64,000 nt of DNA from Candidatus Adlerbacteria bacterium (GTDB taxonomy: Bacteria > Patescibacteriota > Minisyncoccia > Phycocordibacterales > SBAW01): NCBI GenBank assembly GCA_026397405.1, contig JAPLUW010000001.1:339977-403976 (forward strand), given 5' to 3'. Positions 11,679 through 63,427 of the stretch are shown one piece after another. A program made the position numbers and the translations under genes. Under the pieces are notes generated by a model. It saw only the letters and a program-made list of their open reading frames with translations, ran no database searches and had not been told where the DNA came from. Each line of letters starts with the position of its first letter. Within the stretch, counting starts at the first letter, position 1.

Positions 11679-12272
11679 ATGGAACAGACGTATATGCCGG
11701 GGCAGATAAAAATTGGAGTGGCGGGTGCAGCCGAGACTGGCCACTGTGGCATTGATGCAGAAGAAAAGGGAAAGGAGCTTGGCCGCCAAATCGCACAACA
11801 AGGCGCGATACTTTTGACTGGCGCTACAACCGGCTTCCCCATGTGGAGTGCGATGGGTGCCAAAGAAGCAGGAGGACTTTCTGTGGGGCTTTCGCCTGCG
11901 ACAGGCGAGAAAGAGCATATCGAGACATACAACCTACCGCTCGAGTATATGGACATGATAGTTTACACCGGTTTTGGGTACCCGGGGCGTGATATTATTT
12001 TTACCCACTCCACAGACGGCATGCTCTTTGGCTGCGGGCGCATTGGCACTATACACGAATTTACCGTCGCGTTTGAAGACGGTAAACCAATAGGCATTTT
12101 AGAAGGCGCGTGGGAAACAGACGAAGTGTTGCATGACATCATTAACAACGGCCACCGCCCAAGTGACATGATTATTTTTGACAGCGACCCTAAGGCGTTG
12201 GTGGAGAGGGTCGTAGAGATGGTTAAAAAAGACAGAGTTAAACGTGCGGGTTTCCACGTGGCTGCGCTCTAA
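11679..12272 (+). CDS. LOG / TIGR00725-family Rossmann-fold protein (possible lysine-decarboxylase-like nucleotide-binding protein)
   Basis: IGVAGAA...LLTGATTG glycine-rich motifs of the LOG/SLOG fold. Assigned on family resemblance only. Confidence 0.5.
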   Translation: MEQTYMPGQIKIGVAGAAETGHCGIDAEEKGKELGRQIAQQGAILLTGATTGFPMWSAMGAKEAGGLSVGLSPATGEKEHIETYNLPLEYMDMIVYTGFGYPGRDIIFTHSTDGMLFGCGRIGTIHEFTVAFEDGKPIGILEGAWETDEVLHDIINNGHRPSDMIIFDSDPKALVERVVEMVKKDRVKRAGFHVAAL

Positions 12273-12338
12273 AGAGTAGCCCGATTATACCCAGCAGGTG
12301 CCTTTTGTTTGAGGGGTATGTACCGTATCTTTATATAT

Positions 12339-14321
12339 ATGCAACAATTTTTACGTACAAAAACTCTTCTCTCTTTTGTATTCGCTCTTTCTTTTCTATG
12401 TGTACCGACGTTAGCCCTTGCCCAAGAAGACGGCGAACAGCAGGGTCCGGCGCCAGAACAACAGCAACAATATGACGAACCTACGCAGTCTGCACAAACA
12501 AGTAGCGACGACAATAGTTTATACGGCGGCAGCACGGAAGGTGCCAGCACCGCATCCTTTAGTTTCTTCGACACACCTGCACTTGAAACCTCCGGCTGGG
12601 GTGGGGAGGGAAGTCTGGGCGAACCTCAAGTCGGTGGAGGTAGTACTGGCTTTAGCGAACTTCAGCGGCAACTTACCCAAAGTGCTGAACAGACTTATAA
12701 CGGTCCAACAGAAGTACCGATCGAATACAGTAACAGAGACCAACAGGACTTGCTCAATAGCCAACTTCCTAACAAATACGACTACATCAACCAAAGTTTA
12801 ACCAACACTAACAATGTTGGAACCTACGATTTCTTCCCTGAAGGTACTGTGTCACCAGAATTTAATACTCTTGAAAACAGCCTTACCCGCAATGAACTAA
12901 ACGATCCATATTTGCTTAACAAAGACGTTCCTCCTGTTTCGGCTCTTGACTATCAACGGCTGGACCAAGCTCAAGCGCGTGCAGAGCAAGATGCGTTGAA
13001 TGCGCAGCTGAACGAAAATGCGGCAAATAATCCCAATTTGACAGGCCCAGACACGCCGACCCTTTTACAAAATTTGGAAACATGGGCGTTTGGTGGGCCA
13101 AATGAGGGCGGCGACGAAAAAGGCGTTAACGCCGGAGGTAAACCTTTGCCTTCAGAAGAACTTGGAACCACCCTTGAGTCGGGTATCAAAGAGCTTAGGA
13201 CTAGCCCCGAAACGGGAAGCAAGGAAGACTATATTTTCAGTGAAAAAAATGGCGGTTCCTGGATACCGCTTCCTCTCAGTGGGCAGGAGCGTACAGATGT
13301 GGTGAATAGACTACAGGCCGAAGGATATCTTGCAGAAGGGCAAAATGCCAAAATTGTAGAAGTGCGCGACGGCGCAATAAATGCGGAACCAATTGGGTTT
13401 GGTCTGCCCGGCATGTCCCCTACGTCTCCCAGCTCTTCTGCGGGGCCCGATGTGAACATACCTCCTGGTTCTAGCGCTGGCGGCAAACCGTTACCATACG
13501 ACGAGAAAGAAAGTACTATGGTTCCAGCCGGACAGACGCTGGGCGTCGCAGATGGAAAAGGTTCGCGGCTCCTACTGGCAACTCCTGGAGTGGGCGGTTC
13601 TAGTCCAGCACCCGAACAGGCGTCTACCCCTGCCCCAAGCACACAAAGTGGGGGAGGGCTACAAAACTTTGTAGGGAATATTGGTTCGGCTGTGGGTGAA
13701 TTTGGCGCGAAGGTCGGAGATGTTGTAGGTAAGGGAATTACTTCAGTTGCAGACACTCTTTCCGGTTGGGGGAGCTCTATTGGAGGTTTGTTTAGTAGCA
13801 CACCACCTGCGGCATCAAGTGGTTCAAAATATCTCGATTCAACGCCGTCTGTGGGAGACTCTCCAGTAAACCAGGCCGGGGCTCCTACGACCCTGCCGGT
13901 CACGCCAGTTTCTGCTCCTACCGAACCTACCCCTGCCCCTGCTCCATCATCTCCTGCTCCGGCAGAGCAAAAAGTGGGTGGTCCAAGCACTACCCAAATA
14001 CCTCCTTGGAAAGAGGAAGAAGAAACCGTGTTTGTGCCGCCTGCAGCAATTCAAGAAAAATTAACCCCTCCACCTCCAGGTACGCCCTTAGACAGTCCAG
14101 CATCCAAGGCGTATGACGCGCAACTGACAAGAGTTTACGAAGCGATAAACGGACTGGCCCCTGATGAGAAGCAGGCTCTTGTGGAGCAGAAAAAACAATT
14201 GGAAGTCGAAAACAAGCCAGTTCCTCCATGGATGCAAAGCGCAGTCAACCAGATAAATCTTCAAAATGCAATTTTGGAGCAACAGAAGGATTTCTTGAAA
14301 AGAAAAGGGCTTACTAATTAG
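12339..14321 (+). CDS. Large secreted low-complexity (Pro/Ser/Gly/Gln-rich) protein, paralog 1
   Basis: Signal-peptide-like N-terminus (MQQFLRTKTLLSFVFALSFLCVPTLALAQE). About 660 aa with biased composition. Shares motifs with the downstream gene (AQEDGEQQGP..., SFFDTPALETSGWGG). Confidence 0.6.
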   Translation: MQQFLRTKTLLSFVFALSFLCVPTLALAQEDGEQQGPAPEQQQQYDEPTQSAQTSSDDNSLYGGSTEGASTASFSFFDTPALETSGWGGEGSLGEPQVGGGSTGFSELQRQLTQSAEQTYNGPTEVPIEYSNRDQQDLLNSQLPNKYDYINQSLTNTNNVGTYDFFPEGTVSPEFNTLENSLTRNELNDPYLLNKDVPPVSALDYQRLDQAQARAEQDALNAQLNENAANNPNLTGPDTPTLLQNLETWAFGGPNEGGDEKGVNAGGKPLPSEELGTTLESGIKELRTSPETGSKEDYIFSEKNGGSWIPLPLSGQERTDVVNRLQAEGYLAEGQNAKIVEVRDGAINAEPIGFGLPGMSPTSPSSSAGPDVNIPPGSSAGGKPLPYDEKESTMVPAGQTLGVADGKGSRLLLATPGVGGSSPAPEQASTPAPSTQSGGGLQNFVGNIGSAVGEFGAKVGDVVGKGITSVADTLSGWGSSIGGLFSSTPPAASSGSKYLDSTPSVGDSPVNQAGAPTTLPVTPVSAPTEPTPAPAPSSPAPAEQKVGGPSTTQIPPWKEEEETVFVPPAAIQEKLTPPPPGTPLDSPASKAYDAQLTRVYEAINGLAPDEKQALVEQKKQLEVENKPVPPWMQSAVNQINLQNAILEQQKDFLKRKGLTN

Positions 14322-14392
14322 CCGGTCTTCTGTAAGTTATACCCACCCCCTTCTTCTGCCTATGGGGAATATCAGCTATTGTTAGGGGACAT

Positions 14393-16882
14393 ATGCAATT
14401 TTTTATAGGCAAAAAAGTCGCCACTATTAGTTTTGTTGTAGCGTCGGCAGTGTTGTGTGCGCCGCTTGTTGCGCTCGCTCAAGATACTGCGCCGCAGCCC
14501 CAACAATCATTTCTTGGTTTTATAGTACAAAACATATTTTTGTCACCGTTGTCGTTTGCCGCGCCGTCGCTTGAAGCTGCGTCGGCTATGCGTGCGGTAC
14601 TTGCCCAAGAAGGCGGCGAACAGTCAGGGCCCGAACCAGAGGCCCAGCCCATGCAAAACGAAGAGCCCACACAACCTGCACCCGTCGACTCTTCGTTTGG
14701 CGGTAATACAGAAGTCGGTGGCGGCGGTGGAGGTTCTGGTAGTACGGGAGATCCAACTTCTGTCCCAATTAGTTTTTTCGACCCACCAGCACTCAAAACA
14801 TTTGGGTGGGGAGGAGGGCCGCTTCAACCGGAAACATCAGAACCCATTAAATATGAAGTAACAGAAAGTCGATATACAGAGCAAGGAGGACAAGAGTATA
14901 CACCGCTTAACCAAGCTCAGAAGCCCCAACAACAGGGGCCAGAGCCGGAGCAGCAGATTGGTGCAAATGGAGTGGCACAAAACGGACCAGTTGATCCTTC
15001 GTTTGGTGGTAATGCGGAAGTTGCTGTCGGGGGCGGATTCAGTCTTTTTAAAAAACCCCAACAGGAAACACCAGAGTTAGGACAAGAACCTGTACAATAT
15101 AAAACACAAGACACTGCATATAAAGAACTAGACTATATGCCGCTTAACCAAGCTCAAGCGCCAGCACCAAAGCAACAAGATTCGCTGAATGCACAAAATG
15201 TACTCGCCACATCAAAATTTCTCGACGCAAACGGAGTGTCACCAGAGGAACAAAAAACTATTTTGGGTGGGCTCTATGACTTTGTAACTGGTGCAGATAC
15301 AAAAGATGGCCCGATGGTTTCTAACTCTGGATGTAAAACTCCAGATGGGTCCTCATGTACTCTAGAAAGCAAATATCTAGGAGGTTCACGTCCCCAGCTA
15401 GGGAATGATTATGATACAGGCATACGCGCCCTGCCAAATGTGTATGTAAACACTGCCCCTTTTACTTTTGCATATGTTGAGAAAGGCGGTGTCGGATATT
15501 GGTACAGTCTTGGATATAATAGTGAACCAGAGGGAATCGCTAAAGGAGTAGCAGCTTTAAAGGAAGAAGGTTATGAGAATATTCGAGGAGTCGTGCTAAC
15601 AGCGGGGGGAGCAGAGACTAAAGAGGTAAATTTGATGCCGGCGGGTGGTTTGCAGCAAATCGAAACATACACTGTTCCTGGTGCAACTGCTGATAAGCTT
15701 GCTCCTACGCTTCCGCCCGGTTTTGATCCTAATACTAGTCTTGAGGAGGGCAAGAAAGATTTAATATCTCGCAGTGCGGATGCTGTTTTTGTGGATAATA
15801 AATGGTATCCATCGCCAGTAGATCTCAATGAGAGAAAAGCTTTGATAGAACAACTACAGGCAAAAGGAGATGTAACAGAGATACGGAGTGGCGGAATATA
15901 TGAGTTTAAAAGTCAGCCTGGAGGAGCCCCTTCAGGACCGCAAGGGAATGAAAATCCATCACCAAACACTGGTCCTCGTAACGAAGTACCGCCAGGTCTG
16001 GGCCCCCGCGCAGTTGCTGGACTTGAAACTACAGTAGGTCTTCCGGGTTCAAAGCTCCCACCATTTAATCTCACTCCAGGCTCTAATGTGTTGCCTACAT
16101 TTAGCAACCCTACTCCTAATAAGCCATATGACCCTTTATATGGTACTGATAATATTGTCCCAGCTGGCGCTAAGATGCCAGTAGTTGGTGGTGGCACAGG
16201 CTCTAACACCCCAGGGTCTGCTGTCACAGGCGGGGGCAGCGCAGGAGTTGAATCTTCATATTATGTAAATCTCAAAGGGGAAGGTACCGGCTTGGTTACC
16301 TTGCGTGAAGGTCAAGCACCACCAGCCGGGTACACTCGTGTGTGGTCCACAGGGGACGGTGGTTTTACACCTACTGCACCAACCCGTGAAGGAGGGCAGA
16401 GCTTCGCTGAAACGGCTCTGGTAAATAGAATACAGGCAAGTGCTAATGCTCCTGTCCCTGTCGAGCCTCCCGGTTTCTTCGAACGGGCATGGAATTTTAT
16501 TACAGGACGTTCCTCTAGTGCTCCTGCTCCAACTTCACAAACCCCATATTCTTCAGTAGATGACCTGTTGCGTACCGACCGACCGGCTACTCCCGCCGCT
16601 ACCACACCGACAAGTGCTAATAACTTCACGATTGACCCGGCTACAGGGCGTGTTACAGCAGTTGATCCTATTACAGGGCGTACTTCCGCAGTAGATGTTC
16701 CAGTTTCTCGCTCTGCTACTTCGCCAGCGCCCGCTACTGAATCTCCGTCTTTTTGGAGTGATCCTATTGGTTATTTAAGCAGCAAGGGGATCATTGGACC
16801 ACCACCAAAAGTTTTGCAAGCACCGCCACCACAAAAGCAACCTGAAGGGTTTCTCATTGGCGGTGGTATTAGAATAAGGTAA
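14393..16882 (+). CDS. Large secreted low-complexity protein, paralog 2, with internal repeats
   Basis: Signal peptide plus AQEGGEQSGPEPE and SFFDPPALKTFGWGG motifs paralogous to the upstream gene. Internal duplications (VDSSFGGNTEV / VDPSFGGNAEV, Y[TM]PLNQAQ). 829 aa. Confidence 0.6.
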   Translation: MQFFIGKKVATISFVVASAVLCAPLVALAQDTAPQPQQSFLGFIVQNIFLSPLSFAAPSLEAASAMRAVLAQEGGEQSGPEPEAQPMQNEEPTQPAPVDSSFGGNTEVGGGGGGSGSTGDPTSVPISFFDPPALKTFGWGGGPLQPETSEPIKYEVTESRYTEQGGQEYTPLNQAQKPQQQGPEPEQQIGANGVAQNGPVDPSFGGNAEVAVGGGFSLFKKPQQETPELGQEPVQYKTQDTAYKELDYMPLNQAQAPAPKQQDSLNAQNVLATSKFLDANGVSPEEQKTILGGLYDFVTGADTKDGPMVSNSGCKTPDGSSCTLESKYLGGSRPQLGNDYDTGIRALPNVYVNTAPFTFAYVEKGGVGYWYSLGYNSEPEGIAKGVAALKEEGYENIRGVVLTAGGAETKEVNLMPAGGLQQIETYTVPGATADKLAPTLPPGFDPNTSLEEGKKDLISRSADAVFVDNKWYPSPVDLNERKALIEQLQAKGDVTEIRSGGIYEFKSQPGGAPSGPQGNENPSPNTGPRNEVPPGLGPRAVAGLETTVGLPGSKLPPFNLTPGSNVLPTFSNPTPNKPYDPLYGTDNIVPAGAKMPVVGGGTGSNTPGSAVTGGGSAGVESSYYVNLKGEGTGLVTLREGQAPPAGYTRVWSTGDGGFTPTAPTREGGQSFAETALVNRIQASANAPVPVEPPGFFERAWNFITGRSSSAPAPTSQTPYSSVDDLLRTDRPATPAATTPTSANNFTIDPATGRVTAVDPITGRTSAVDVPVSRSATSPAPATESPSFWSDPIGYLSSKGIIGPPPKVLQAPPPQKQPEGFLIGGGIRIR

Positions 16883-16894
16883 AACGTAAAACGG

Positions 16895-16930
16895 TAAAAA
16901 ATCCCTCTAGGTTAGAGGGATTTTTTATTT
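16895..16930. terminator. Bidirectional intrinsic terminator (TCCCTCT-AGGTT-AGAGGGA, followed by a T run)
   Basis: Inverted repeat with flanking A and T tracts, lying between the convergent gene at 16882 and rplT. Confidence 0.65.
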
Positions 16931-16940
16931 GGAGCGTTTA

Positions 16941-17291
16941 TTATTTTACTTTGGCTACTATCTTTGCAAATATTTCCGGAGACTGTTCTGCAAGGAGAGA
17001 AAGCATTTTGCGGTTTATCGCAATCTCGGCCTTCTTAAGTGCACCTATAAACTTGCTGTATGAAAACTTTTCGTCAATTTGGTCGAGGCCGGCGTTGATG
17101 CGCACGTTCCAGAGTTTGCGGTAGTCGTTCTTTTTGTCGCGGCGGTGGGCAAACGCGTACTTACCCGCGTGGAAGATAGCTTCGCGAGCCTGCTTCTTTT
17201 TTGTTGAGCGGCCAAAGCGGTAGCCTTTGGTCATCGCAAGCATGTTCTTGCGGCGCTTCAATGAATTTACTCCTCCTTTTACGCGTGACAT
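16941..17291 (-). CDS. rplT: 50S ribosomal protein L20
   Basis: 116 aa. MSRVKGGVNSLKRRK... is typical of L20. Canonical infC-rpmI-rplT order. Confidence 0.9.
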   Translation of the reverse strand: MSRVKGGVNSLKRRKNMLAMTKGYRFGRSTKKKQAREAIFHAGKYAFAHRRDKKNDYRKLWNVRINAGLDQIDEKFSYSKFIGALKKAEIAINRKMLSLLAEQSPEIFAKIVAKVK

Positions 17292-17301
17292 AGTAGTGTA
17301 A

Positions 17302-17502
17302 TTAGTTCTTATTCTTAGACGCAGTACCGACGTACATCTGCGACACCTTTGGGCTTACGGTCAACTGCTGTGAGCGGTTACCGTCCATCTGGGTCGAACG
17401 GCCTTCCTTTGCATTAAAGTGGTTCTGGCCTGGCTTGCGCGCAATAAGCTTACCGTTTTTGGTAATTTTAATGCGCTTGGTAAATGCTTTGTTTGTTTTC
17501 AT
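17302..17502 (-). CDS. rpmI: 50S ribosomal protein L35
   Basis: 66 aa and basic. MKTNKAFTKRIKITKNGKL... is typical of L35. Confidence 0.85.
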   Translation of the reverse strand: MKTNKAFTKRIKITKNGKLIARKPGQNHFNAKEGRSTQMDGNRSQQLTVSPKVSQMYVGTASKNKN

Positions 17503-17517
17503 GGAAATTTCTCTAAT

Positions 17518-18081
17518 CTATGCTTTCTTGCCGGCTCTCTCGATTACTGTTGTCAGGCCTTTAGGGCTTTTGGTTATGGGGTCGCTTATCTTGTACTCCT
17601 CGGGGATGATTTTTAAAAATCGCTCGAGGCGTTCCTTCAAAAAGGCAAACTCCATATACTTGTAGCGCCCCCACAAAAAGAGGTCTACTTTGACCCGGTG
17701 GCCTTCCTTAAGCCACTCTGCAGCCCTTTTGGCCTTTAATTGCAGGTCATTTTCGCCGGTCCCTATTTTCACCTGGACGCTCTTCGTCTCCGTGGTGTGC
17801 GACTTCGCCTTCATTTCCCGGCGTTTCTTCTCCTGTTCGTATTGGAATTTACCATATTCCATGATTTTTGCAACAGGTGGGACGGCCCCGGCCGAGATCT
17901 CTATAAGGTCCAAACCGACCTCTTCGGCACGACGGATAGCTTCAGAAAGCGCCAAAACACCAAAGTTCTCGCCTTCGGGGCCTATGACGCGTACCTCTGC
18001 CGCGCGTATGTGGTGGTTGATGCGTGTATCCAAAGTAGTTGTGTTGGGAAACAGTATACCAGAAAAGGTGTTTTTTACCAC
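17518..18081 (-). CDS. infC: Translation initiation factor IF-3
   Basis: RINHHIRAAEVRVIGPEGENFGVL N-domain and the C-domain. The true start is probably a non-ATG codon downstream of 18081, since IF-3 genes often use AUU/UUG; the start is uncertain. Confidence 0.8.
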   Translation of the reverse strand: MVKNTFSGILFPNTTTLDTRINHHIRAAEVRVIGPEGENFGVLALSEAIRRAEEVGLDLIEISAGAVPPVAKIMEYGKFQYEQEKKRREMKAKSHTTETKSVQVKIGTGENDLQLKAKRAAEWLKEGHRVKVDLFLWGRYKYMEFAFLKERLERFLKIIPEEYKISDPITKSPKGLTTVIERAGKKA

Positions 18082-18174
18082 TGGGAGTCCTCACGAGAGC
18101 TTCATTAAGAATAGGGGACAATGTGGGTGCAGTTTCAAACAGCAGTCTATTATTTACTACGCGAATTTATTTGT

Positions 18175-19251
18175 ATGAACAGAACAACAGCAATAGTGGG
18201 CGGCATTGTGGTTCTTATAGCACTCGGGGGTTTATTTGTATACGCAAACCAGGGTGGGTTTAGTCCGCAAGGGGTAGCGACGACTACTCCGGACACTACG
18301 GGGGTTCCTGGGGCAAACACTGCAGGTACGGCAAGCGCAGTAACTAGTTCAAATGTTACAACAACCGACGCAACAGCCATTGTTACCGGCAGTATTGTGC
18401 CAAACGGCGCCCTCACTAGTTATTGGTACGAATATGGTTTGACCGCGGCTTTGGGCGCTAAAACAGCAGCGCAAATAGTTGGCTCGGGATACTCATCATT
18501 TTCGGCACCGGGGTATATTGTAGGTCTAAGCAGAGACACCACATACTACTTCCGTCTTGTTGCGGAAAATCAGTATGGCAGGACCTATGGCGCAGCCCAC
18601 ACATTGTTGACCACGCACAGCACACCTGCGCCGCAGGGAGGCGTGCCAACAAGCACTACAGTCAGTGCAGACGGTATAACAAAAACTGCCGTAAATTTGC
18701 ACGGTCAGGTAATACCAAACGGAGCATCTACCCAGTTCTGGTTTGAATATGGGACAACGGTAGCGCTCGGCAACACAACATCACTCCAGTCTGTTGGTAG
18801 TGGCACTGCGGTGGTACCTGCAGCAACGTCCCTTTCGGGCTTGCAACCCCTTACCACGTACTACTTCCGCTTGAATGCACAAAACCAATTTGGCACCGTA
18901 AACGGTGGGACACTAAGCTTTACAACGGCTGGGCCTGCGGCAACACCAGCACCCGCTGTGCAGACCAGCAATGCCACTGCGGTGGGCAACACCAGCGCTA
19001 CCTTGCGCGGTTCAATTAACCCACAAGGCGAACAGACAACCTACTGGTTTGAATATAGTACAGACTCACTTCTTGGTGCAGTCTTGTTAAAGACAACACC
19101 ACAAGCAAGTGCGGGTTCTGGAACTGCTGCAAGGTCGCTTAGTGCAAATGTTACAGGGCTTGCCCGCAACACGACATACTACGCGCGCATCGTGGCACAA
19201 AACAGCAAAGGTCAGTTTCGCGGAGACAACGTAACCTTTAAGACAAAGTAA
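18175..19251 (+). CDS. Membrane-anchored surface protein with three tandem Fn3-like repeats of about 90 aa
   Basis: N-terminal TM (MNRTTAIVGGIVVLIALGGLFVYA). Three repeats each carry T.YW[YF]EYG...TTYY[FA]R[LI][VN]A.N..G. Confidence 0.6.
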   Translation: MNRTTAIVGGIVVLIALGGLFVYANQGGFSPQGVATTTPDTTGVPGANTAGTASAVTSSNVTTTDATAIVTGSIVPNGALTSYWYEYGLTAALGAKTAAQIVGSGYSSFSAPGYIVGLSRDTTYYFRLVAENQYGRTYGAAHTLLTTHSTPAPQGGVPTSTTVSADGITKTAVNLHGQVIPNGASTQFWFEYGTTVALGNTTSLQSVGSGTAVVPAATSLSGLQPLTTYYFRLNAQNQFGTVNGGTLSFTTAGPAATPAPAVQTSNATAVGNTSATLRGSINPQGEQTTYWFEYSTDSLLGAVLLKTTPQASAGSGTAARSLSANVTGLARNTTYYARIVAQNSKGQFRGDNVTFKTK

Positions 19252-19294
19252 CAATCACACTCTTTGGTTGCTCGCGCATAGGCGTGGAGCAGTC

Positions 19295-26437: not shown

Positions 26438-26450
26438 TTTCTGTCTTTTG

Positions 26451-26524
26451 TGTGCCTGCCTGGACTCGAACCAGGGACCGCCGAGGTATAAGCTCGGAGC
26501 TCTAACCAACTGAGCTACAGGCAC
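26451..26524 (-). tRNA. tRNA with anticodon UAU (tRNA-Ile, AUA decoder)
   Basis: Manual cloverleaf: acceptor GTGCCTG/CAGGCAC, D-arm GCTC...GAGC, anticodon stem CCGAG/CTCGG with loop CTTATAC (anticodon TAT), T-arm CCTGG-TTCGAGT-CCAGG. Confidence 0.7.
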
Positions 26525-31808: not shown

Positions 31809-33422
31809 ATGCATATAGTAAAAAAGGTTATCTCATACATACGACACCTTCCTCTGAAGTATTCCCTAGGTGGGGGAGCGGCTATTGCTGTCGCACTTGT
31901 CTTGGGTGTGCATATGCTCACACGCCCAGATGCTGGTGCAACACTGGCGCCACAAGTGTCCCACGTGCGCATTGCTTCGGTCGCGAGCCTTTCATCCCAA
32001 ACAGCGGGGCCATTGCCGGTTACTGGTACCGTTACCTCGCTTAACGAAGCAGTTATTCTTGCACAAAGCTCGGGCGAAGTTGTGGTACTTAACCGCGAAC
32101 TAGGTGACTACGTATCCGCGGGCACCATTATTGCCCAGCTCGAAAACAGCAGCCAGCGTGCGGCGGTGCTCCAAGCGCAGGGTGCGTACGACGCTGCGCA
32201 GGCAACATTTGCAAACACAAGTGGCACCAATGCGACAAACTCGGGCATTAGTGCTGCGCAGGCAAAACAAAATGTAATTAATGCACAAAACGCTGCCGAC
32301 ACGTCACTTCAAAGTCTCTACAGTGCGCTCGACGATGCAGTGCACACCAAAGCAGACCTTTTGTTTGTTGATCCACATACAAACCCAAAACTTATATTGA
32401 CCGTCTCTGACAGCCAGCTGCTTATTACTTTGCAAAACGAACGCGGACAGCTTGACCTGACACTTGCAAATGCAAGCACTCTCGCAAATAAAACATCTCG
32501 CACTGACACCGATGCAGACATTGCTGCCATGAATGCACACGCACGTCTCATTTCGACCTTCCTTAACAACTTGGTTGATGCGGTCAACAAGTCTATACCA
32601 AGCCAGACTGTCTCTGCGTCGCAAATTGCGGCGTTTCAGGCATCGGTTGGTGTTGCGCGCACATCTGTCACGAGCGCTGTCGCTGCGCTTGCGGGAGCCA
32701 AGGTCTCGTACGACAACGCAGTTGCAAGTGCGGCGGCAGCAACAAATACTGCAGGGACGGGAACGTCAAACAGTATCAGCATTGCAGAAGCAAATGTGAC
32801 ACAAGCACAAGGTGCATTAAATGCAGCGCGTGCAACACTTGAAAAAACAATTATCCGTTCGCCAATTTCAGGCACTATTGTGAGTCTCCCCCTCACGCGC
32901 GGCGGGTTTGTGTCCATGGCGACTCAAGTTGCACAAGTGTCGAACCCTAGCGCACTCGAAGTAAAAGCGTATGTGACTCCAAATGACGCAAAAACTCTTG
33001 CAGTCGGAGGCGCTGCGGTTATAGGTGAAGGGACACAAGGAGTAATTGTCTCAATTGCGCCAGCACTCGACCCAACAACAGGCAAGATTTTGGTCACGGT
33101 GGGTATTGTCGGGAGTCAAAGTGCACTGACCGACGGCGAAACAACCACCGTTTCTATTGCCCGTGCTACTGCTGCACAAAAACCAAAAATAAAAAATGCA
33201 TCAACAGATATTCTTATTCCTATTATTGCGGCAAAAATTACTCCCGAAGGCCCGATAGCATTTACGGTCAGCTCCTCTACGTTGCAGCAAATTCCTATTA
33301 CGCTCGGGACCATACTCGGTAGCCAAGTAACAGTATTAACAGGTCTTACAGGGGAGTCGGTAATCGTCACAGACGCTCGCGGCCTTTCAAACGGCCAAAC
33401 AGTGGTTGTCGACACACACTAA
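31809..33422 (+). CDS. Efflux RND transporter periplasmic adaptor (membrane fusion protein, HlyD family)
   Basis: N-terminal TM, a long Ala/Gln-rich coiled coil, a lipoyl-like domain (IIRSPISGTIVSLP) and a beta-barrel domain. Translationally coupled to the downstream RND permease. Confidence 0.7.
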   Translation: MHIVKKVISYIRHLPLKYSLGGGAAIAVALVLGVHMLTRPDAGATLAPQVSHVRIASVASLSSQTAGPLPVTGTVTSLNEAVILAQSSGEVVVLNRELGDYVSAGTIIAQLENSSQRAAVLQAQGAYDAAQATFANTSGTNATNSGISAAQAKQNVINAQNAADTSLQSLYSALDDAVHTKADLLFVDPHTNPKLILTVSDSQLLITLQNERGQLDLTLANASTLANKTSRTDTDADIAAMNAHARLISTFLNNLVDAVNKSIPSQTVSASQIAAFQASVGVARTSVTSAVAALAGAKVSYDNAVASAAAATNTAGTGTSNSISIAEANVTQAQGALNAARATLEKTIIRSPISGTIVSLPLTRGGFVSMATQVAQVSNPSALEVKAYVTPNDAKTLAVGGAAVIGEGTQGVIVSIAPALDPTTGKILVTVGIVGSQSALTDGETTTVSIARATAAQKPKIKNASTDILIPIIAAKITPEGPIAFTVSSSTLQQIPITLGTILGSQVTVLTGLTGESVIVTDARGLSNGQTVVVDTH

Positions 33423-33425
33423 CGT

Positions 33426-36400
33426 ATGCTTTGGCTTTGGAACTTTTTTCTTGAACGGAAACAGTTTAGCTACGTACTTATTGGTACGCTGGTTATTGCA
33501 GGGTTCTACTCGTTACTCCAGATCCCAAAGGAAAATTCGCCATCTATTGTTATACCCGACGGCATTGTGTCGGTTGCACTGCCAGGTGCGTCGGCTGCCG
33601 ACATGGAGACGCTTGTTACCGACAAACTCGAAAACAAAATTTCGGGGTTGAGCAACGTACACAAAGTTACTTCCAATTCGAGCGACGGCGTGTCTGTTGT
33701 AACAGTCGAATTTGATGCAAGCGCCGACGTTACTCAGTCGATACAGGAACTGCGTGATGTTGTCGCAAAAGCAGTGCCGGAACTTCCTACAGATGCTACG
33801 ACACCGCAGGTAAGTAAAGTCGATATCAGTAACCAGCCGGTGCTTGTTGTTTCTATTTCGGGAGACTTACCACTTACAGAATTTTCTGCACTCGGCACTA
33901 CCATTTCTGACGAGATAAAAAGTGTTACAGGGGTGTCTGACATTTCTATTGCCGGCGTACCCGACCGGCAAGTCACAGTTGTTGTCAGTAAGGAGCAACT
34001 TCAACAGTACGGCCTGCGGCTTATCGATGTTATTGCGGCTATTCGTGCGGCAAATGTTGCGGCACCTGCCGGAAGTATTTCTATGGATGGTGTTAACTAC
34101 AACGTTAACTTTAAAGGTGGCATTACCGACCCAAAGGAAATACAAGACATTGCCGTCGGGTCAAAAAATAATATTCCTATATATGTGCGCGATATTGCAG
34201 TAGTTTCAGACGCGCTTGCTCCTGCAACAACATACTCGCGCCTCTCCCTTGGCGGCAAACCGAGCAACCAGGCAATGACGCTGCTTATTTCAAAACAAGC
34301 AGGTGCAAGTGTGCAGGGCGTTGCCGATGCAGTCAAAGCAAAAGTAGCAAGCATGCAGCAAGGGACGTTGAAAGGGCTCGATGTATTTATCTCTCCGTCG
34401 ACCGACCAAGGTGTCCAGGTGCGTAAACAGCTGGGTGACTTAACCAAAACAGGGTTGGAAACAGTGGGGCTCGTTATTATTGTGCTGCTTCTGACCATCG
34501 GATGGCGCGAGTCAATTGTAGCCGCCCTCGCCATACCGCTGTCGTTCCTCATTGCGTTTATTGGGCTGTACTTCACCGGCAATACACTTAACTTCATAAG
34601 CCTCTTTGCACTTATTTTGGCGGTAGGTATTTTGGTGGACTCCGGCATTGTGGTGACAGAAGCTATTCACGCCCGCATGAAGGTGCACGGCAACCCCATG
34701 GATGCTGCACGTGCGGCGCTACACGACTATGCGTGGCCGCTTATTGCGGGAACTATGGCAACGGTCGCAGTGTTCGCTCCACTCTTTTTTATCTCCGGCA
34801 TCATAGGTAAATTTATTGCGGGTATTCCATACACACTTATCTTTGTGCTTATGGCGTCGATTTTTGTGGCGCTCGGCATTGTCCCACTTATTGCAGTGTT
34901 GTTTACCAAGCAATCAGGACAGAGCCGGTTTGAAGAGTGGCAGGAAATGTATACCGACAAGGCAACGCATTGGTACAAAAATAATCTACACAAAATCCTG
35001 GCGAGTGCGCGTTTGCAACGCCGTTTTTTGTGGACGCTCGGTATATTGTTTACCCTCTCGCTCGCGCTGCCATTTACGGGCCTGGTGCAGACAACATTCT
35101 TTCCACAAGACGACCAAGACTTTGTGTATATCAACATCCAAAAACCCCAAGGCACAACATTGTCCACAACTGACCTTACGGTCCGCGAAATCGAAGAATT
35201 GCTCTATGCGGACCCGGACATTTCATCACTACAAACAACAGTAGGACAAAGCTCTGGTGTGGCAGGGGGCGGGGGCTCTGCGGGCAGCAACCAAGCAAAT
35301 ATTACGGTCAACTTGCCGCTTGGTCATAAAAAAACCAGTACCGAAATTGCAAACGAATTGGGGCAGCGCCTTGCAGTTGTAACAGATGCGTCGGTCCAAG
35401 TACTGCAAGCAAACAACGGCCCGTCTGCGGGTGCGCCTATCCAAATTCAGTTTAAAGGAGACAACCTTAACGACTTGGTCAAAGCAGCAGAAGCAGGGAA
35501 GCAACTGCTCGCTACTATTCCGCACGTCACCAACGTTACGGCAACAACACAAAACAATGGAACCGAGTTTGACTTGACCGTTAACAGAGGTAAGGCCACA
35601 GCGCTAGGTTTGAGCACGCAAGTTGTCGCACAAACATTGCGTGCTGCTATACAAGGCACCAAGGCAACCAGCATCACACAGCCATCTAAAGACATCGACG
35701 TCGTGGTTAAGCTCAACTTAAATGCCAACTACACCGACCCGTCTGACACATCCCGCACGACAATTGATACGATAAAAAACCTCACCATACAGGGTGCTGC
35801 AGGGCCGGTGCTGCTTGGTACGGTCCTCGACGACACGCTGGGCCCAAGCAATGCAAACATTGCCCATATAGAAAAAACTCGAGTCGAAACAATTTCTGCC
35901 TACCCCGACGACAAAACAACCGCAACTGCAGTGGTCGCAGAATTTCAAAAACGTGTAACAGAGTTGCGGTTGCCGGCAGGTGTTGCCGTCGCATACGGTG
36001 GTGAGACAGAAGACATCACGCGTTCGTTTATAGAAATGTTTGTTGCACTTATTGCAGGGCTCGTGCTGATGTTCATGATTCTTATTTTGTGTTTTAACTC
36101 CATTCGCTACACCTTCCAGTTGCTGCTTATTGTGCCACTCTCGCTTATTGGTGTGCTCGACGGTTTGGCACTTACCGGGCAGCCGGTGTCGTTTACGTCG
36201 CTGCTTGGCATCATTGCGCTTGGTGGCGTGATTATTAACCACGCGATTATTTTGATGGACTCGATGATCCATCAGCTCCACGCCGCGCCGAACATGGCAC
36301 TTATTGACTCGGTCGTAGAATCTTCTGCAACACGCCTACGTCCTATTTTCCTCACCACCGTTACAACCATTGTTGGTATGATCCCGCTTGCAGAGTCCAA

Positions 36401-36521
36401 CCCTACGTGGGGGCCGCTCGCATTTTCAGTTATGTTTGGACTTGGGTTTGCTATCTGCCTTACGCTCGTACTCGTTCCCGTATTATTTTTCCGCACACAA
36501 CAAAAGAAGGGACTAAAATAA
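33426..36521 (+). CDS. RND efflux transporter permease (AcrB/HAE1-like)
   Basis: 1031 aa with the 12-TM pseudo-repeat architecture. Conserved RND TM4/TM10 regions (GILVDSGIVVTEAI..., GVIINHAIILMD). Confidence 0.8.
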   Translation: MLWLWNFFLERKQFSYVLIGTLVIAGFYSLLQIPKENSPSIVIPDGIVSVALPGASAADMETLVTDKLENKISGLSNVHKVTSNSSDGVSVVTVEFDASADVTQSIQELRDVVAKAVPELPTDATTPQVSKVDISNQPVLVVSISGDLPLTEFSALGTTISDEIKSVTGVSDISIAGVPDRQVTVVVSKEQLQQYGLRLIDVIAAIRAANVAAPAGSISMDGVNYNVNFKGGITDPKEIQDIAVGSKNNIPIYVRDIAVVSDALAPATTYSRLSLGGKPSNQAMTLLISKQAGASVQGVADAVKAKVASMQQGTLKGLDVFISPSTDQGVQVRKQLGDLTKTGLETVGLVIIVLLLTIGWRESIVAALAIPLSFLIAFIGLYFTGNTLNFISLFALILAVGILVDSGIVVTEAIHARMKVHGNPMDAARAALHDYAWPLIAGTMATVAVFAPLFFISGIIGKFIAGIPYTLIFVLMASIFVALGIVPLIAVLFTKQSGQSRFEEWQEMYTDKATHWYKNNLHKILASARLQRRFLWTLGILFTLSLALPFTGLVQTTFFPQDDQDFVYINIQKPQGTTLSTTDLTVREIEELLYADPDISSLQTTVGQSSGVAGGGGSAGSNQANITVNLPLGHKKTSTEIANELGQRLAVVTDASVQVLQANNGPSAGAPIQIQFKGDNLNDLVKAAEAGKQLLATIPHVTNVTATTQNNGTEFDLTVNRGKATALGLSTQVVAQTLRAAIQGTKATSITQPSKDIDVVVKLNLNANYTDPSDTSRTTIDTIKNLTIQGAAGPVLLGTVLDDTLGPSNANIAHIEKTRVETISAYPDDKTTATAVVAEFQKRVTELRLPAGVAVAYGGETEDITRSFIEMFVALIAGLVLMFMILILCFNSIRYTFQLLLIVPLSLIGVLDGLALTGQPVSFTSLLGIIALGGVIINHAIILMDSMIHQLHAAPNMALIDSVVESSATRLRPIFLTTVTTIVGMIPLAESNPTWGPLAFSVMFGLGFAICLTLVLVPVLFFRTQQKKGLK

Positions 36522-39977: not shown

Positions 39978-41822
39978 ATGGACCTACTCACGCTTCTTTT
40001 ACAAACTGGAGCTATAGACGCTACGCTCGTGCCTGCTCTCCGGCTAGAGCTCGGCAAACCTGGCGCAAACGCAGAGGAGGTGTTTCTTGCTGCAGGTGTT
40101 CCGGCCGAAGAAATTCTTAAAGCTAAGGGTGCGTATTACGGCACCCCTGTGCGCGAGCTTGGGTCCGAACCTGTGCCGTTTAGCACACTTAGCTATATTC
40201 CCGAAGAATCTGCGAGGCACTACCACTTTGTCCCGCTTGGGGTAGAAGACGGCGCGCTGCTTGTTGGTGTAACCGACCCCGACAATCTTGAGGCACGCGA
40301 TGCACTGACGTTTATTTCGGCAAAAGTGGGGATGCCGTACAAAGTATTTCTTATAAGTGAGGCTGACTTTGCAAAACTCCTTCTCGAATATAAAGGACTC
40401 TCCGGTGAAGTGGGAAAAGCGTTGAATGACCTCGAAACTGAAAGTACTACAGACATTCACGCCGAAGAAACAAAGCGCAATATTTCTATCGAAGACGAAG
40501 AGGTGACAGACACAGCAGAGGCGGTGAGCGAAGGTGCGCCTGTGACAAAAATTGTTGCGACGGTGCTGCAGCATGCCTCCGAGCAGCGCGCGTCTGACAT
40601 CCATATCGAACCTATGGCCGAACAAACTCGTGTGCGGTTTCGTATCGATGGTGTGCTTATCACCAACTTAACACTACCTTCCAAAGTACACACGTCGGTT
40701 GTGGCGCGTATCAAAGTGCTGTCTAACATGCGTCTGGACGAAAAGCGCAAACCTCAAGACGGCCGTTTTTCTGCACGGGTTGGTACTGACAAAATAGACT
40801 TTCGTGTTTCGACATTTCCAACCTACTATGGCGAAAAGGTAGTGATGCGTATTTTGGGCTCTGCTGCGCAAGACTTACGGCTGGAAAGTTTGGGCATGTC
40901 CGAGCGCGACATTGCACTTATCCGTACCGCGATAAAAAAACCCTACGGTCTGGTGTTGGTGTCGGGCCCAACAGGTTCGGGTAAGTCGACCACCTTGTAT
41001 GCGCTGTTAAATGAAATTGATCGCGAAGGACAGAATGTACTTTCGCTCGAGGACCCGGTTGAATATACGATCCCTGGTGTATCGCAAAGCCAAATTCGCC
41101 CTGAAATCGGATACACGTTTGCAACAGGCTTGCGCACCACACTGCGCCAGGACCCAAATATTATTATGGTCGGCGAAATCCGCGACGCAGAAACTGCAAA
41201 CTTGGCCGTGCAAGCAGCACTTACGGGCCACTTGGTGCTTTCAACCATACACACCAACAACTCTATTGGTATTATCCCGCGCCTCCTCGATATGGGTGTC
41301 GAGCCCTACCTTATACCACCAGTGCTTATTTTAGGTATGGCACAACGCCTTGTTCGTACGTTATGCAAAAACGGCGGCAAAGTAGTTACTGCAGAACAAA
41401 GTATGCAGGAAATGTTTACAAAAGAGTTTGAAGACTTACCTGAAGAATATAGAAAAAAATTACCCCCGCTCAACACCGTGCACCGGCTGCAAGTCACGCC
41501 CGAATGTCCGTCGGGTACACAGGGACGTATTGCAGTAGTTGAAGTGTTCGATATGAATCCAGAACTTGAAAAAGCGATACTCGAACACAAACCCGAAGAA
41601 GAAATGTTTGCAACGGTGCGTAGACACGGCATGTTGACCATGAAAGAAGATGCTATTATTAAATCTGTAAAAGGTATTATTCCGTTCGAAGAAGTAAACA
41701 CACTCGGAGGTCAGTATGAACTGGAAGACGATGTAGAAGCAGCCCCCATGCCGCCTCCAGCTCCCGAAGCGCTTGCTGCAGATGGAGATAACGATGCACC
41801 AGGAAAAGAAGTACAAATTTAA
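39978..41822 (+). CDS. pilB: Type IV pilus assembly ATPase PilB (GspE family)
   Basis: N-terminal GSPII-like domain, Walker A GPTGSGKSTT, Asp box, Walker B, His box, and a C-terminal Cys cluster. Confidence 0.85.
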   Translation: MDLLTLLLQTGAIDATLVPALRLELGKPGANAEEVFLAAGVPAEEILKAKGAYYGTPVRELGSEPVPFSTLSYIPEESARHYHFVPLGVEDGALLVGVTDPDNLEARDALTFISAKVGMPYKVFLISEADFAKLLLEYKGLSGEVGKALNDLETESTTDIHAEETKRNISIEDEEVTDTAEAVSEGAPVTKIVATVLQHASEQRASDIHIEPMAEQTRVRFRIDGVLITNLTLPSKVHTSVVARIKVLSNMRLDEKRKPQDGRFSARVGTDKIDFRVSTFPTYYGEKVVMRILGSAAQDLRLESLGMSERDIALIRTAIKKPYGLVLVSGPTGSGKSTTLYALLNEIDREGQNVLSLEDPVEYTIPGVSQSQIRPEIGYTFATGLRTTLRQDPNIIMVGEIRDAETANLAVQAALTGHLVLSTIHTNNSIGIIPRLLDMGVEPYLIPPVLILGMAQRLVRTLCKNGGKVVTAEQSMQEMFTKEFEDLPEEYRKKLPPLNTVHRLQVTPECPSGTQGRIAVVEVFDMNPELEKAILEHKPEEEMFATVRRHGMLTMKEDAIIKSVKGIIPFEEVNTLGGQYELEDDVEAAPMPPPAPEALAADGDNDAPGKEVQI

Positions 41823-63028: not shown

Positions 63029-63427
63029 CTACAGCGACTTTAGAACTTCTTTCACAAAATCTATGACCTTTTCGTTCTGTAATGCTTCCTCCAGAGTTAG
63101 CTCAACGATAGACCTTCCTTCATGGAGTTCCAATTTGGACGGATCTATTCTTTTTGCGAGAAACATCTGGCAGTAGTCACCAGGCATATTAGGTTCTGGA
63201 AAAGCCCCAATTTCCTCTAAATCTTCTTTTTCCAGATATAGGCTGAGTTCTTCTCTCATCTCTCGTACTGCACATTGAATGATAGTTTCGCCCTGTTCTA
63301 GCCCGCCACCAAAATTTGCGATTCTGTCTGGAAATATCTTTGTATTATTATCACGTTCTTGAAACAAGAATGTGCCTTTTACAGTTTGTAAAATAACACC
63401 TGCTCCAGTTACATTCTTCTCTGTCAT
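63029..63427 (-). CDS. NUDIX hydrolase (low-GC gene abutting tRNA-Gln)
   Basis: Nudix box GGGLEQGETIIQCAVREMREELSL. Local GC is about 40%, compared with roughly 50% for the window. Confidence 0.65.
   Translation of the reverse strand: MTEKNVTGAGVILQTVKGTFLFQERDNNTKIFPDRIANFGGGLEQGETIIQCAVREMREELSLYLEKEDLEEIGAFPEPNMPGDYCQMFLAKRIDPSKLELHEGRSIVELTLEEALQNEKVIDFVKEVLKSL

Follow-up and report, generated by a model that had tools for sequence, protein, structure and literature searches.

A tandem pair of paralogous, fast-diverging genes for exported-type low-complexity proteins in a Candidatus Adlerbacteria genome

Results

The gene pair and its coding status

The window analysed here is a 64,000-nt stretch of a Candidatus Adlerbacteria metagenome-assembled genome (candidate phyla radiation [CPR]/Parcubacteria), taken from a 495,613-bp contig, in which two adjacent genes, A and B, lie between the LDcluster4 gene and the gene for ribosomal protein L20 (Table 1). 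Both genes occupy the coordinates given by an initial annotation made from the sequence letters, whose term "giant" is too strong a word for proteins of 660 and 829 aa. NCBI annotates the two products, at the same lengths, as hypothetical proteins, and a second, independent Logan assembly (run SRR20698644) carries the identical A/B pair. Orthologues, A' (MEI6864176.1, 554 aa, P0003) and B' (MEI6864175.1, 747 aa), are found in a sister genome (GCA_037135035.1, L001), and more distant homologues were recovered at two further loci, L007 and L024.

Analysis of the reading frames indicated that A and B are coding genes. Only frame +1 is open, with the five other frames carrying 12–66 stop codons, and the periodicity GC1 > GC2 > GC3 is present across codon positions. 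Comparison of B with its orthologue revealed that 20 of the 22 gap runs are multiples of three, as are the net length differences of both A and B. Several islands are under strong purifying selection, with a proportion of non-synonymous differences (pN) of 0.02–0.08 versus a synonymous proportion (pS) of 0.2–0.7 (residues 273–352 and 377–416 of A; residues 1–60, 274–313, 419–458, and 622–727 of B). The initial annotation had named equally good shuffled frames, or a lack of conservation in relatives, as grounds for taking parts of these open reading frames (ORFs) as non-coding; instead, the other frames are closed, the indels are in frame, pN is far below pS in the islands, and relatives conserve parts of the proteins.

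The ORF of gene A opens at a TTG at 12309, with a further in-frame ATG at 12318. The ATG at 12318 stands directly 3' of the Shine-Dalgarno (SD)-like sequence GAGGGG, and the same upstream ATG is present in L001 (window 12309–12341), while the annotated start at 12339 has no SD-like sequence at the usual distance. Gene A may therefore start seven codons earlier (MYRIFIYMQQ...).

Export-type N-termini, composition, and anchoring

By inspection and hydropathy, both proteins have the features of a Sec/signal peptidase I signal: a basic n-region, a hydrophobic h-region, and an AxA site. In A these are formed by MQQFLRTK, the core TLLSFVFALSFLCVPTL, and ALA↓QE; the signal peptide is 93% conserved with low pN relative to the sister orthologue and is the sole hydrophobic window in the protein. 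The first segment of B consists of MQFFIGKK, VATISFVVASAVLCAPLV, and ALA↓QD, and the first-segment alignment (A1) has M1, F4, K8, SFV, C, P, and A.AQ as invariant columns. B has two hydrophobic windows, at aa 3–32 and 39–57 (Kyte-Doolittle 1.47–1.73), of which the second is marginal (1.47). Because this second segment aligns with the signal peptide of A (BLASTP), B looks like a protein in which an A-type signal peptide was set before an older N-terminus; a weak alignment also exists with the L024 signal region. The second segment could be the relic of a signal peptide or could associate with the membrane. The signal peptides initially annotated in both proteins thus stand as export-type N-termini judged by inspection, but the topology of B, with its two hydrophobic segments, is less certain than had been assumed.

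The six residues Gly, Pro, Ser, Ala, Thr, and Gln make up ~53% of A and ~54% of B. Measured against twelve housekeeping proteins of the same window, 36% of the 21-aa windows in A and 28% of those in B exceed the 95th percentile of disorder propensity, in line with the initial description of the sequences as Pro/Ser/Gly/Gln-rich and disordered-looking. A and B are strongly acidic (pI 4.2–4.6), with 4.05–4.6 as the range for the mature proteins. Tandem Repeats Finder (TRF) gave two trivial rows (score <40) and no tandem repeat arrays; the low complexity is therefore compositional, not a matter of repetitive DNA.

No LPXTG-like C-terminal motif and no C-terminal transmembrane (TM) segment were found in A or B by regular expressions and hydropathy, and no NCBIfam sorting-signal model matched. 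A sortase-anchored LPXTG identity was rejected for lack of both the C-terminal motif and a hydrophobic stretch. A lipobox likewise has no match in A or B: the h-region Cys has Leu or Val at position −1 (SFLC, AVLC) and is lacking from the L024 and L007 homologues. A lipoprotein identity was therefore rejected. Known wall-binding domains, SLH included, were not found in A or B in Pfam and NCBIfam at E ≤ 1. The cysteines of mature B form a single CX7C pair that is kept in B', and the L024 and L007 proteins have CX4–5C; close pairs of this kind are as expected for extracytoplasmic disulfide loops.

Paralogy and modular organisation

Comparison of the two proteins revealed that residues 2–89 of A and 38–141 of B are 39% identical (BLASTP with compositional adjustment, E = 2e-9), which places the shared N-terminal motifs AQE[DG]GEQ...SFFD.PAL.T.GWGG, first noted in the initial annotation, beyond chance. 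A second block, containing ER..L...LQA.G, relates residues 277–406 of A to 448–600 of B (BLASTP, E = 4e-4). When this segment of A and its orthologue was aligned with copy 2 of B and its orthologue, hhalign gave a probability of 95.6% (E = 1.2e-8), and the A/A' and B/B' profiles match with E = 2e-35. The short element KP.PYD....VPAG is also common to A and B, in the same order. A and B are true collinear paralogues, as the initial annotation had held.

The internal duplications it had reported are real in B, where two pairs of direct repeats (14670–14731 with 14976–15037, and 14891–14929 with 15128–15166) mark an aromatic/Gly module present in two copies, and a further 30 nt are duplicated in tandem at 16632–16691. 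The aromatic/Gly module is of the type copied between the paralogues in the sister genome.

Structural prediction indicated that the shared segment of ~80 aa, called globular in the initial annotation, is a small two-layer alpha/beta domain without an assignable fold family. The domain (W.P.P....[EQ]R..[LV]...LQA.G), with the predicted element order alpha-bb-alpha-bb, is present in A, A', B, and B'. The AlphaFold2 (AF2) model of A 269–358, built from a six-copy alignment, has a mean predicted local distance difference test (pLDDT) score of 71 and a predicted template modelling (pTM) score of 0.58, with the elements H11–20, E28–33, E39–43, H47–60, E69–75, and E78–83. The model of B 262–510, built from a two-sequence alignment, is poor (mean pLDDT 44) and contains two helix-hairpin-helix-hairpin units. 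Copy 1 of B matches the A domain by hhalign with E = 1.2e-3 and has no match to copy 2, and the case for a true third copy of the predicted domain is weak.

In the most conserved island of B, the YVNL motif is followed by the amphipathic segment FAETALVNRIQ...PPGFFERAWNFITGR. The pattern YVNL..G..P..GYT.VW..DGG presumably resembles the Listeria-Bacteroides repeat (Pfam Flg_new) in its beta-strand start, Gly turn, Pro, and GY.F/W spacing; this resemblance is unsupported, and neither Flg_new nor any other Pfam family was found at E ≤ 1 for the B, L007, or L024 proteins.

Divergence and recombination in the sister population

In L001, the same pair lies between LDcluster4 and L20, with B' at L001:3335–5578, and A matches A' with E = 7e-142. 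The neighbouring proteins of the window and L001 are 93–99% identical, with a non-synonymous divergence (dN) of 0.003–0.05 and a ratio of non-synonymous to synonymous divergence (dN/dS) of 0.01–0.10, whereas over alignable columns A is 60% identical to A' (dN 0.35, dN/dS 0.37) and B is 67% identical to B' (dN 0.25, dN/dS 0.39). A and B thus diverge much faster than their neighbours, and the rates within them form a mosaic in which the constrained islands stand among long stretches with pN ~ pS and many indels.

The 5' parts of A' and B' share a direct repeat of 300 nt with 98% identity, an indication of recent gene conversion between their 5' modules. As a result of this conversion, A' carries B-type modules where the A of the window has unrelated sequence. 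A 3.4-kb ENA contig from a different strain (L002, 98–99.5% identity to L001) has one gene of 702 aa, P0002 (L002 915–3023, compared with L001 1590–5578), in which the 5' end of A' passes into the body of B' within the 300-nt repeat. This fused gene is either a real recombinational deletion or a collapse in the MEGAHIT assembly (k141 contig).

A further tract, at window positions 16401–16530 (B codons ~670–713), has one difference from the sister genome in 130 nt, while the equally conserved codons just upstream have ~12 synonymous changes in 33 codons and the gene-wide pS is 0.43. No RNA structure was found in 16401–16530 (folding z 0.36 and 0.10), by which an RNA element is ruled out as the cause of the near-identity; a short stretch of recent recombination is the probable explanation. 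The tract is overlapped by an antisense ORF (16312–16629).

Database status and distribution

Pfam, NCBIfam, PHROGs, PADLOC, and PDB sequences gave no credible match for A or B, in keeping with the earlier statement that no known domain was recognisable; low-complexity noise accounts for two PDB sequence matches (E = 0.009 and 0.07). From 1.84 billion cluster representatives, an exhaustive HMMER profile search returned only P0002 and P0003, both from one sister population. Whole-protein searches among the best 8000 candidates by common words returned the query and two relatives and missed the 747-aa orthologue, which falls in the 90% cluster of P0002. A motif-profile search of 5.8e9 proteins was empty and also did not recover the query's own protein, so it carries little weight. 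No relative was found in a motif scan of IMG/VR, tblastn against 50,697 phage records gave no match, and the literature provided context only, with nothing on the A/B family. By cluster look-up, the recognisable family comprises five sequences, A, B, A', B', and the 702-aa ENA protein; the four NCBI members are labelled "hypothetical protein" and the ENA member has no label.

Using LDcluster4 as an anchor, we collected 20 further loci from species-representative genomes with 10-kb flanks (a 21st, L003, is the L001 contig). The slot is empty in about a dozen Adlerbacteria/Paceibacterota relatives, which have L20 immediately after LDcluster4 and retain the gene order NDK, RNase J, LDcluster4, L20/L35/IF3, extracytoplasmic function (ECF) sigma, DUF5667. 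A phmmer search with A, B, A', and B' found no match in the 20 loci. In L007, a 721-aa secreted-type low-complexity protein encoded ~4 kb downstream carries ITYVNLTQDGTGLLSLPAGQTPPPGYTRVYTTSDGGIT, a match to the best-conserved island of B. Scanning JGI metagenomes for the motif returned one locus, L024, where a single gene for a secreted-type low-complexity protein of 679 aa stands in exactly the LDcluster4–L20 slot; over 38 aa its product is 63% identical to the B motif (BLASTP E = 5e-12; hhalign E = 2.9e-10). Clear homology links this protein with that of L007 (E = 3e-27), and the alpha-bb-alpha-bb domain was not detected in either.

The motif YVNL..GTG[LM]..L..GQ.PP.GYT[RK]V..[TS].DGG is present in B, B', P0002, L007, and L024 and absent from A and A'. 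A signal peptide ending in AQ[ED] and followed by an acidic Gly/Gln/Pro-rich start is found in A, A', B, B', and L007, and after a short spacer in L024. In a neighbour-joining tree of five flanking proteins, the window and L001 are sister to a clade of L024, L004–6, L007, and L009, and the 38-aa motif is kept between genomes whose neighbour proteins are 75–93% identical. The simplest history starts from one ancestral gene in the slot, which was duplicated in tandem in the lineage of the window and lost or relocated elsewhere; on this crude tree, two independent insertions are a less simple alternative. The conservation in relatives that the initial annotation had asked for is partial: parts of the proteins are conserved in a few relatives and the slot is empty in about a dozen.

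Genomic neighbourhood

Upstream of A lie a beta-CASP RNase J-like gene and then the LDcluster4 gene, whose product is SLOG/LOG-like (Pfam E = 4e-32), as the annotated LOG-like neighbour led one to expect. Downstream of B, on the opposite strand, are L20 and then IF3, with L35 between the two in the syntenic L001 locus. The pair had been described as framed by strong terminators, which is correct for the hairpin after B (z = −5.1); shuffled sequences fold as well as the LDcluster4–A and A–B spacers do (z 0.08 and 1.14), and a terminator consensus scan had no match before A or between A and B.

The GC content at third codon positions (GC3) of B is 0.33 (z = −3.05), the lowest among the window's 61 non-overlapping ORFs of 120 aa or more, and that of A is 0.41, within the lowest five of the 61; ribosomal and housekeeping neighbours have 0.48–0.59. 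The only other strong outlier is the ORF at 63029–63427 (minus strand, 0.34). Low GC3 in A and B fits weak codon selection on fast-evolving, probably modestly expressed genes, or a foreign origin, and, as an indirect proxy of expression, argues against a very abundant structural protein.

The product of a gene at 18121–19251 (plus strand) has 376 aa, a hydrophobic segment at its N-terminus, and three FN3-like repeats (Pfam fn3, Pur_ac_phosph_N, E ~1e-7). This gene, which sits between IF3 and the ECF sigma gene, is a second lineage-specific insertion of an envelope-protein gene in the same neighbourhood, since in L001 and L024 the sigma gene comes immediately after IF3. Around the ECF sigma/DUF5667 pair, the large secreted or membrane proteins differ between relatives: L007 has a 460-aa protein as well as the 721-aa homologue (13276–16795), and L008 has two signal-peptide proteins of 748 and 1059 aa (13665–19268, minus strand). 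These loci suggest that the ECF sigma/DUF5667 region is a hotspot of envelope-protein gene turnover.

Elsewhere in the window, ARAGORN predicted a tRNA-Ile with the anticodon TAT (UAU) at 26450–26524 (minus strand). A UAU tRNA-Ile is uncommon in bacteria, which usually read AUA with a lysidine-modified CAU tRNA. An HlyD-like adaptor and a full-length AcrB/resistance-nodulation-division (RND) transporter (E = 5e-180) are encoded at 31809–36521 (plus strand), in an organism usually taken to lack an outer membrane, and a T2SSE/PilB-type ATPase with an MshEN domain (E = 5e-115) is encoded at 39978–41822 (plus strand). Neither of these two loci adjoins A/B.

Table 1. Features of the A/B locus (window coordinates)
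Feature	Position	Strand	Description
Gene A	12339..14321	+	660 aa from ATG; NT019_01890, MCX6820019.1; exported-type, acidic, low-complexity
Signal peptide of A	12339..12422	+	aa 1-28, MQQFLRTK / hydrophobic core / ALA↓QE; by inspection and hydropathy
N-terminal shared motif block of A	12411..12605	+	LALAQEDGEQQGPAPE ... SFFDTPALETSGWGG; BLASTP vs B E=2e-9
Predicted alpha-bb-alpha-bb domain of A	13143..13412	+	aa 269-358; 85-95% conserved, pN 0.03-0.08 vs pS 0.56-0.69
Gene B	14393..16882	+	829 aa; NT019_01895, MCX6820020.1; paralogue of A with longer N-terminus and different C-terminal half
First signal-like segment of B	14393..14479	+	aa 1-29, ..LVALA↓QD; homologous to A signal peptide
Second hydrophobic segment of B	14507..14605	+	aa 39-71, ends MRAVLA↓QEGGEQ; 88% conserved, pN 0.06 vs pS 0.45
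N-terminal shared motif block of B	14594..14815	+	AVLAQEGGEQSGPEPE ... SFFDPPALKTFGWGG; BLASTP vs A
Aromatic/Gly module, two copies in B	14666..15163 (14666-14926; 14975-15163)	+	direct repeats; PVD.SFGGN.EV..GGG.S.F ... EP.QY...Y.PLNQAQ.P
Conserved segment of B	15197..15358	+	the only two mature Cys (C314-X7-C322); 93% conserved; AF2 confidence low
Predicted alpha-bb-alpha-bb domain, probable B copy 1	15383..15649	+	aa 331-419; same predicted element order, pLDDT 52-72
Predicted alpha-bb-alpha-bb domain, B copy 2	15713..15925	+	aa 441-511; BLASTP and hhalign vs A
Most conserved island of B	16253..16540	+	aa 621-716; YVNL..GTGL..GQ.PP.GYTRVW.T.DGG + FAETALVNRIQ...PPGFFERAWNFITGR; 90-95% identity to orthologue
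Conserved C-terminal tail of B	16802..16879	+	..LQAP.PQK..EGF.I.GGIRI[RK]; not a known sorting signal
Bidirectional intrinsic terminator, common to B and convergent L20	16893..16927	.	17-bp stem, -24.8 kcal/mol, z=-5.1, 0/200 shuffles as stable

Discussion

A diversifying family of exported proteins

We think it probable, with modest confidence, that A and B are a tandem duplicate belonging to a lineage-restricted, rapidly diversifying family of Sec-exported, acidic, largely disordered envelope or extracellular proteins with putative binding modules. Both are strings of short conserved elements, namely the AQ[ED][ED]G N-terminal acidic motif, the aromatic/Gly modules, one to three of the ~80-aa alpha-bb-alpha-bb domains, and the YVNL..GYTRV motif of B with its amphipathic segment, parted by Pro/Gly/Ser/Thr/Gln-rich spacers that drift almost neutrally and vary in length through in-frame indels. 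The locus diversifies through duplication, gene conversion of 5' modules between paralogues, and loss or relocation, with the housekeeping neighbours remaining nearly identical. The conserved islands (the alpha-bb-alpha-bb domain, the YVNL motif and the segment that follows it, and the tail of B) may serve as binding modules held off the cell on flexible spacers, where they would most likely touch a partner or host cell at its surface, or else the wall of the organism itself. Fast turnover could then reflect relaxed constraint on the spacers together with pressure on the exposed surface.

Several points weigh against this reading. The signal peptides were recognised by inspection and hydropathy alone, and most of B would lie in the cytoplasm if both its hydrophobic segments crossed the membrane. 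Neither A nor B has an anchoring device of the kinds searched for (LPXTG, lipobox, C-terminal TM, wall-binding domain), and the proteins may for this reason not stay attached to the cell. The comparison of rates covers two genomes only, and the low GC3 of B could be due to foreign origin instead. In the variable parts, pN ~ pS fits neutral drift as well as an arms race; because it suits relaxed constraint on disordered linkers equally, variability alone is no proof of an arms race.

Adhesion to a partner cell is plausible as a role for the putative binding modules, although the features of adhesin families that were searched for (LPXTG, lipobox, beta-rich repeat array, known binding domain) are absent from A and B. 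Parcubacteria are regarded as ectosymbionts in need of contact proteins, with signal peptides in only ~3% of their genes (PMC4508563). The highest non-synonymous diversity in a different group of ultrasmall episymbionts belongs to hypothetical surface proteins (PMC6142677). These studies make partner contact plausible, and neither bears on A and B themselves.

Alternative readings

An S-layer role had been among those initially suggested, and A and B could be self-directed structural proteins of the envelope, forming an S-layer, a wall-spanning matrix, or a hydrated acidic "brush". The export-type N-termini fit such a role, the acidic Pro/Gly/Ser/Thr-rich composition resembles that of wall-associated spacers, and other envelope genes lie nearby (a PG_binding_1 protein, the FN3-repeat protein, and the ECF sigma/DUF5667 pair). 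We nevertheless regard this reading, and the S-layer in particular, as unlikely. The proteins are largely disordered rather than lattice-forming, as the AF2 result for B 262–510 illustrates; the GC3 of B, lowest of the 61 ORFs, does not resemble that of a structural gene with very high expression; most relatives have an empty slot and the copy number varies; and Pfam and NCBIfam contain no SLH or other wall-binding match. The argument that two such large genes represent an investment in a reduced genome is also weakened, the locus being dispensable and fast-changing.

That dispensability leads to a second reading, which we hold to be equally improbable, in which A and B are exported proteins under mostly relaxed constraint, and the variability, indels, and losses are the neutral decay of an accessory gene. 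Long stretches with pN ~ pS, the empty slot in ~12 relatives, a low GC3 consistent with weak selection and AT-biased mutation, and the possible deletion fusing both genes in L002 all agree with decay. It does not explain the several islands with clear purifying selection, the frames of 660–829 codons that stay open in three assemblies, or the survival of the 38-aa motif between genomes with 75–93% identical neighbour proteins. Were A and B drifting accessory proteins, the value of the locus would lie in its annotation, with two real genes and one new small domain.

At the opposite extreme, there is a small chance that the pair is a partner-recognition or phage-evasion system, in which each paralogue would be a sequence reservoir for the other and conversion or unequal recombination in the modular 5' parts would re-assort exposed epitopes in a minimal, antigenic-variation-like manner. 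Under this reading, both the alpha-bb-alpha-bb domain and the YVNL motif would be cell-contact modules that had not been described before. Two mechanisms of programmed variation were looked for separately. A diversity-generating retroelement target was rejected, with no template/variable repeat (TR/VR) pair with adenine-specific differences in 12200–16950, and no reverse transcriptase is found among the adjoining ORFs (RNase J, LDcluster4, L20, IF3, and the FN3-repeat protein). A phase-variable contingency locus was likewise rejected, since simple-sequence or homopolymer tracts and repeat arrays are missing (TRF score <40).

The two hydrophobic segments of B, both conserved in B', raise the question of whether they form an N-terminal two-helix hairpin that makes B an integral protein of the membrane, its body in the cytoplasm, in which case A and B would not both be secreted. 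This we consider quite unlikely: the hydrophobicity of the second segment, in which Gln, Asn, and Pro occur, is only marginal; the same segment can be aligned with A's cleavable signal peptide and, weakly, with the signal region of L024, whose protein has a single segment; and B conserves both its CX7C pair and an A-like acidic low-complexity body.

As a 4.6-kb insertion relative to most relatives, with an atypical GC3 in B, the pair might also be taken for horizontally acquired phage or mobile-element cargo between LDcluster4 and L20. Such an origin is very unlikely, for PHROGs, the 50,697 phage records (tblastn), and IMG/VR gave no match, the junctions have no integrase, tRNA, or flanking repeat, and a homologue occupies the same slot in a more distant relative, which suits vertical descent with losses. 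An identity as a phage or defence-system protein was rejected on the same absence of PHROGs, phage-genome, and IMG/VR matches, together with that of PADLOC matches. Finally, that parts of the ORFs are non-coding, pseudogenic, or spurious in biased DNA is scarcely credible and was rejected because the other frames are closed by 12–66 stops, the indels are in frame, and the islands have pN far below pS, with orthologous ORFs in independent assemblies and the GC1 > GC2 > GC3 periodicity besides, even though the proteins lack a database family and low-complexity DNA also yields long antisense ORFs (e.g. 13229–13990, minus strand, 253 aa).

Significance

To our knowledge, no member of the Paceibacteria/Adlerbacteria has been cultured, and we know of no molecules for their partner contact apart from type IV pili. 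Because A and B are exported-type, taxonomically restricted, duplicated, exchanged between paralogues, and the fastest-evolving proteins in a frozen neighbourhood, the pair can reasonably be proposed as a candidate marker of interactions with hosts or phages at the strain level, and its short conserved islands are concrete targets for expression, antibody, or pull-down work. The two genes also show how much of the "hypothetical" proteome of CPR bacteria escapes even exhaustive profile searches.

Comparison with known systems

The variable surface lipoproteins of Mollicutes (Vlp/Vsp/Vsa) are encoded in small-genome, host-dependent bacteria by tandem paralogues that are of low complexity, vary in size, and exchange sequence. 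A and B are similar in being tandem paralogous, exported-type, low-complexity, and size-variable, with sequence exchange between paralogues; they differ in having no lipobox, tandem DNA repeat arrays, homopolymer tracts, or sequence similarity to these lipoproteins, and no sign of an invertible or phase-variable promoter was seen at A/B. Sortase-anchored Gram-positive adhesins and "periscope" stalk proteins combine a signal peptide, a long spacer of folded repeats, and an LPXTG/TM/basic tail. With these, A and B have in common an N-terminal signal peptide, a long spacer that would project small modules, and length variation through in-frame indels, whereas they lack the LPXTG/TM/basic tail and any known adhesin domain, and their spacers are disordered.

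Closer in setting are the "adhesin-like" proteins of Parcubacteria, which exceed 1500 aa, have beta-sheet domains and internal repeats, and were proposed to act in partner contact (PMC4508563). A and B come from the same phylum-level group and have the same proposed role, but they measure 660–829 aa and are mostly disordered, with only small alpha/beta units. The hypothetical surface proteins of Nanoarchaeota (PMC6142677) resemble A and B as the fastest-changing genes in a purifying background, unannotated and with a predicted surface location; they belong to another domain of life, have no sequence relation to A/B, and were recognised from population single-nucleotide polymorphisms (SNPs), whereas the rates of A/B come from two genomes. 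A and B are thus not a new type of system, but a new, very narrowly distributed orphan family of a familiar general kind, the fast-evolving exported proteins of host-dependent microbes.

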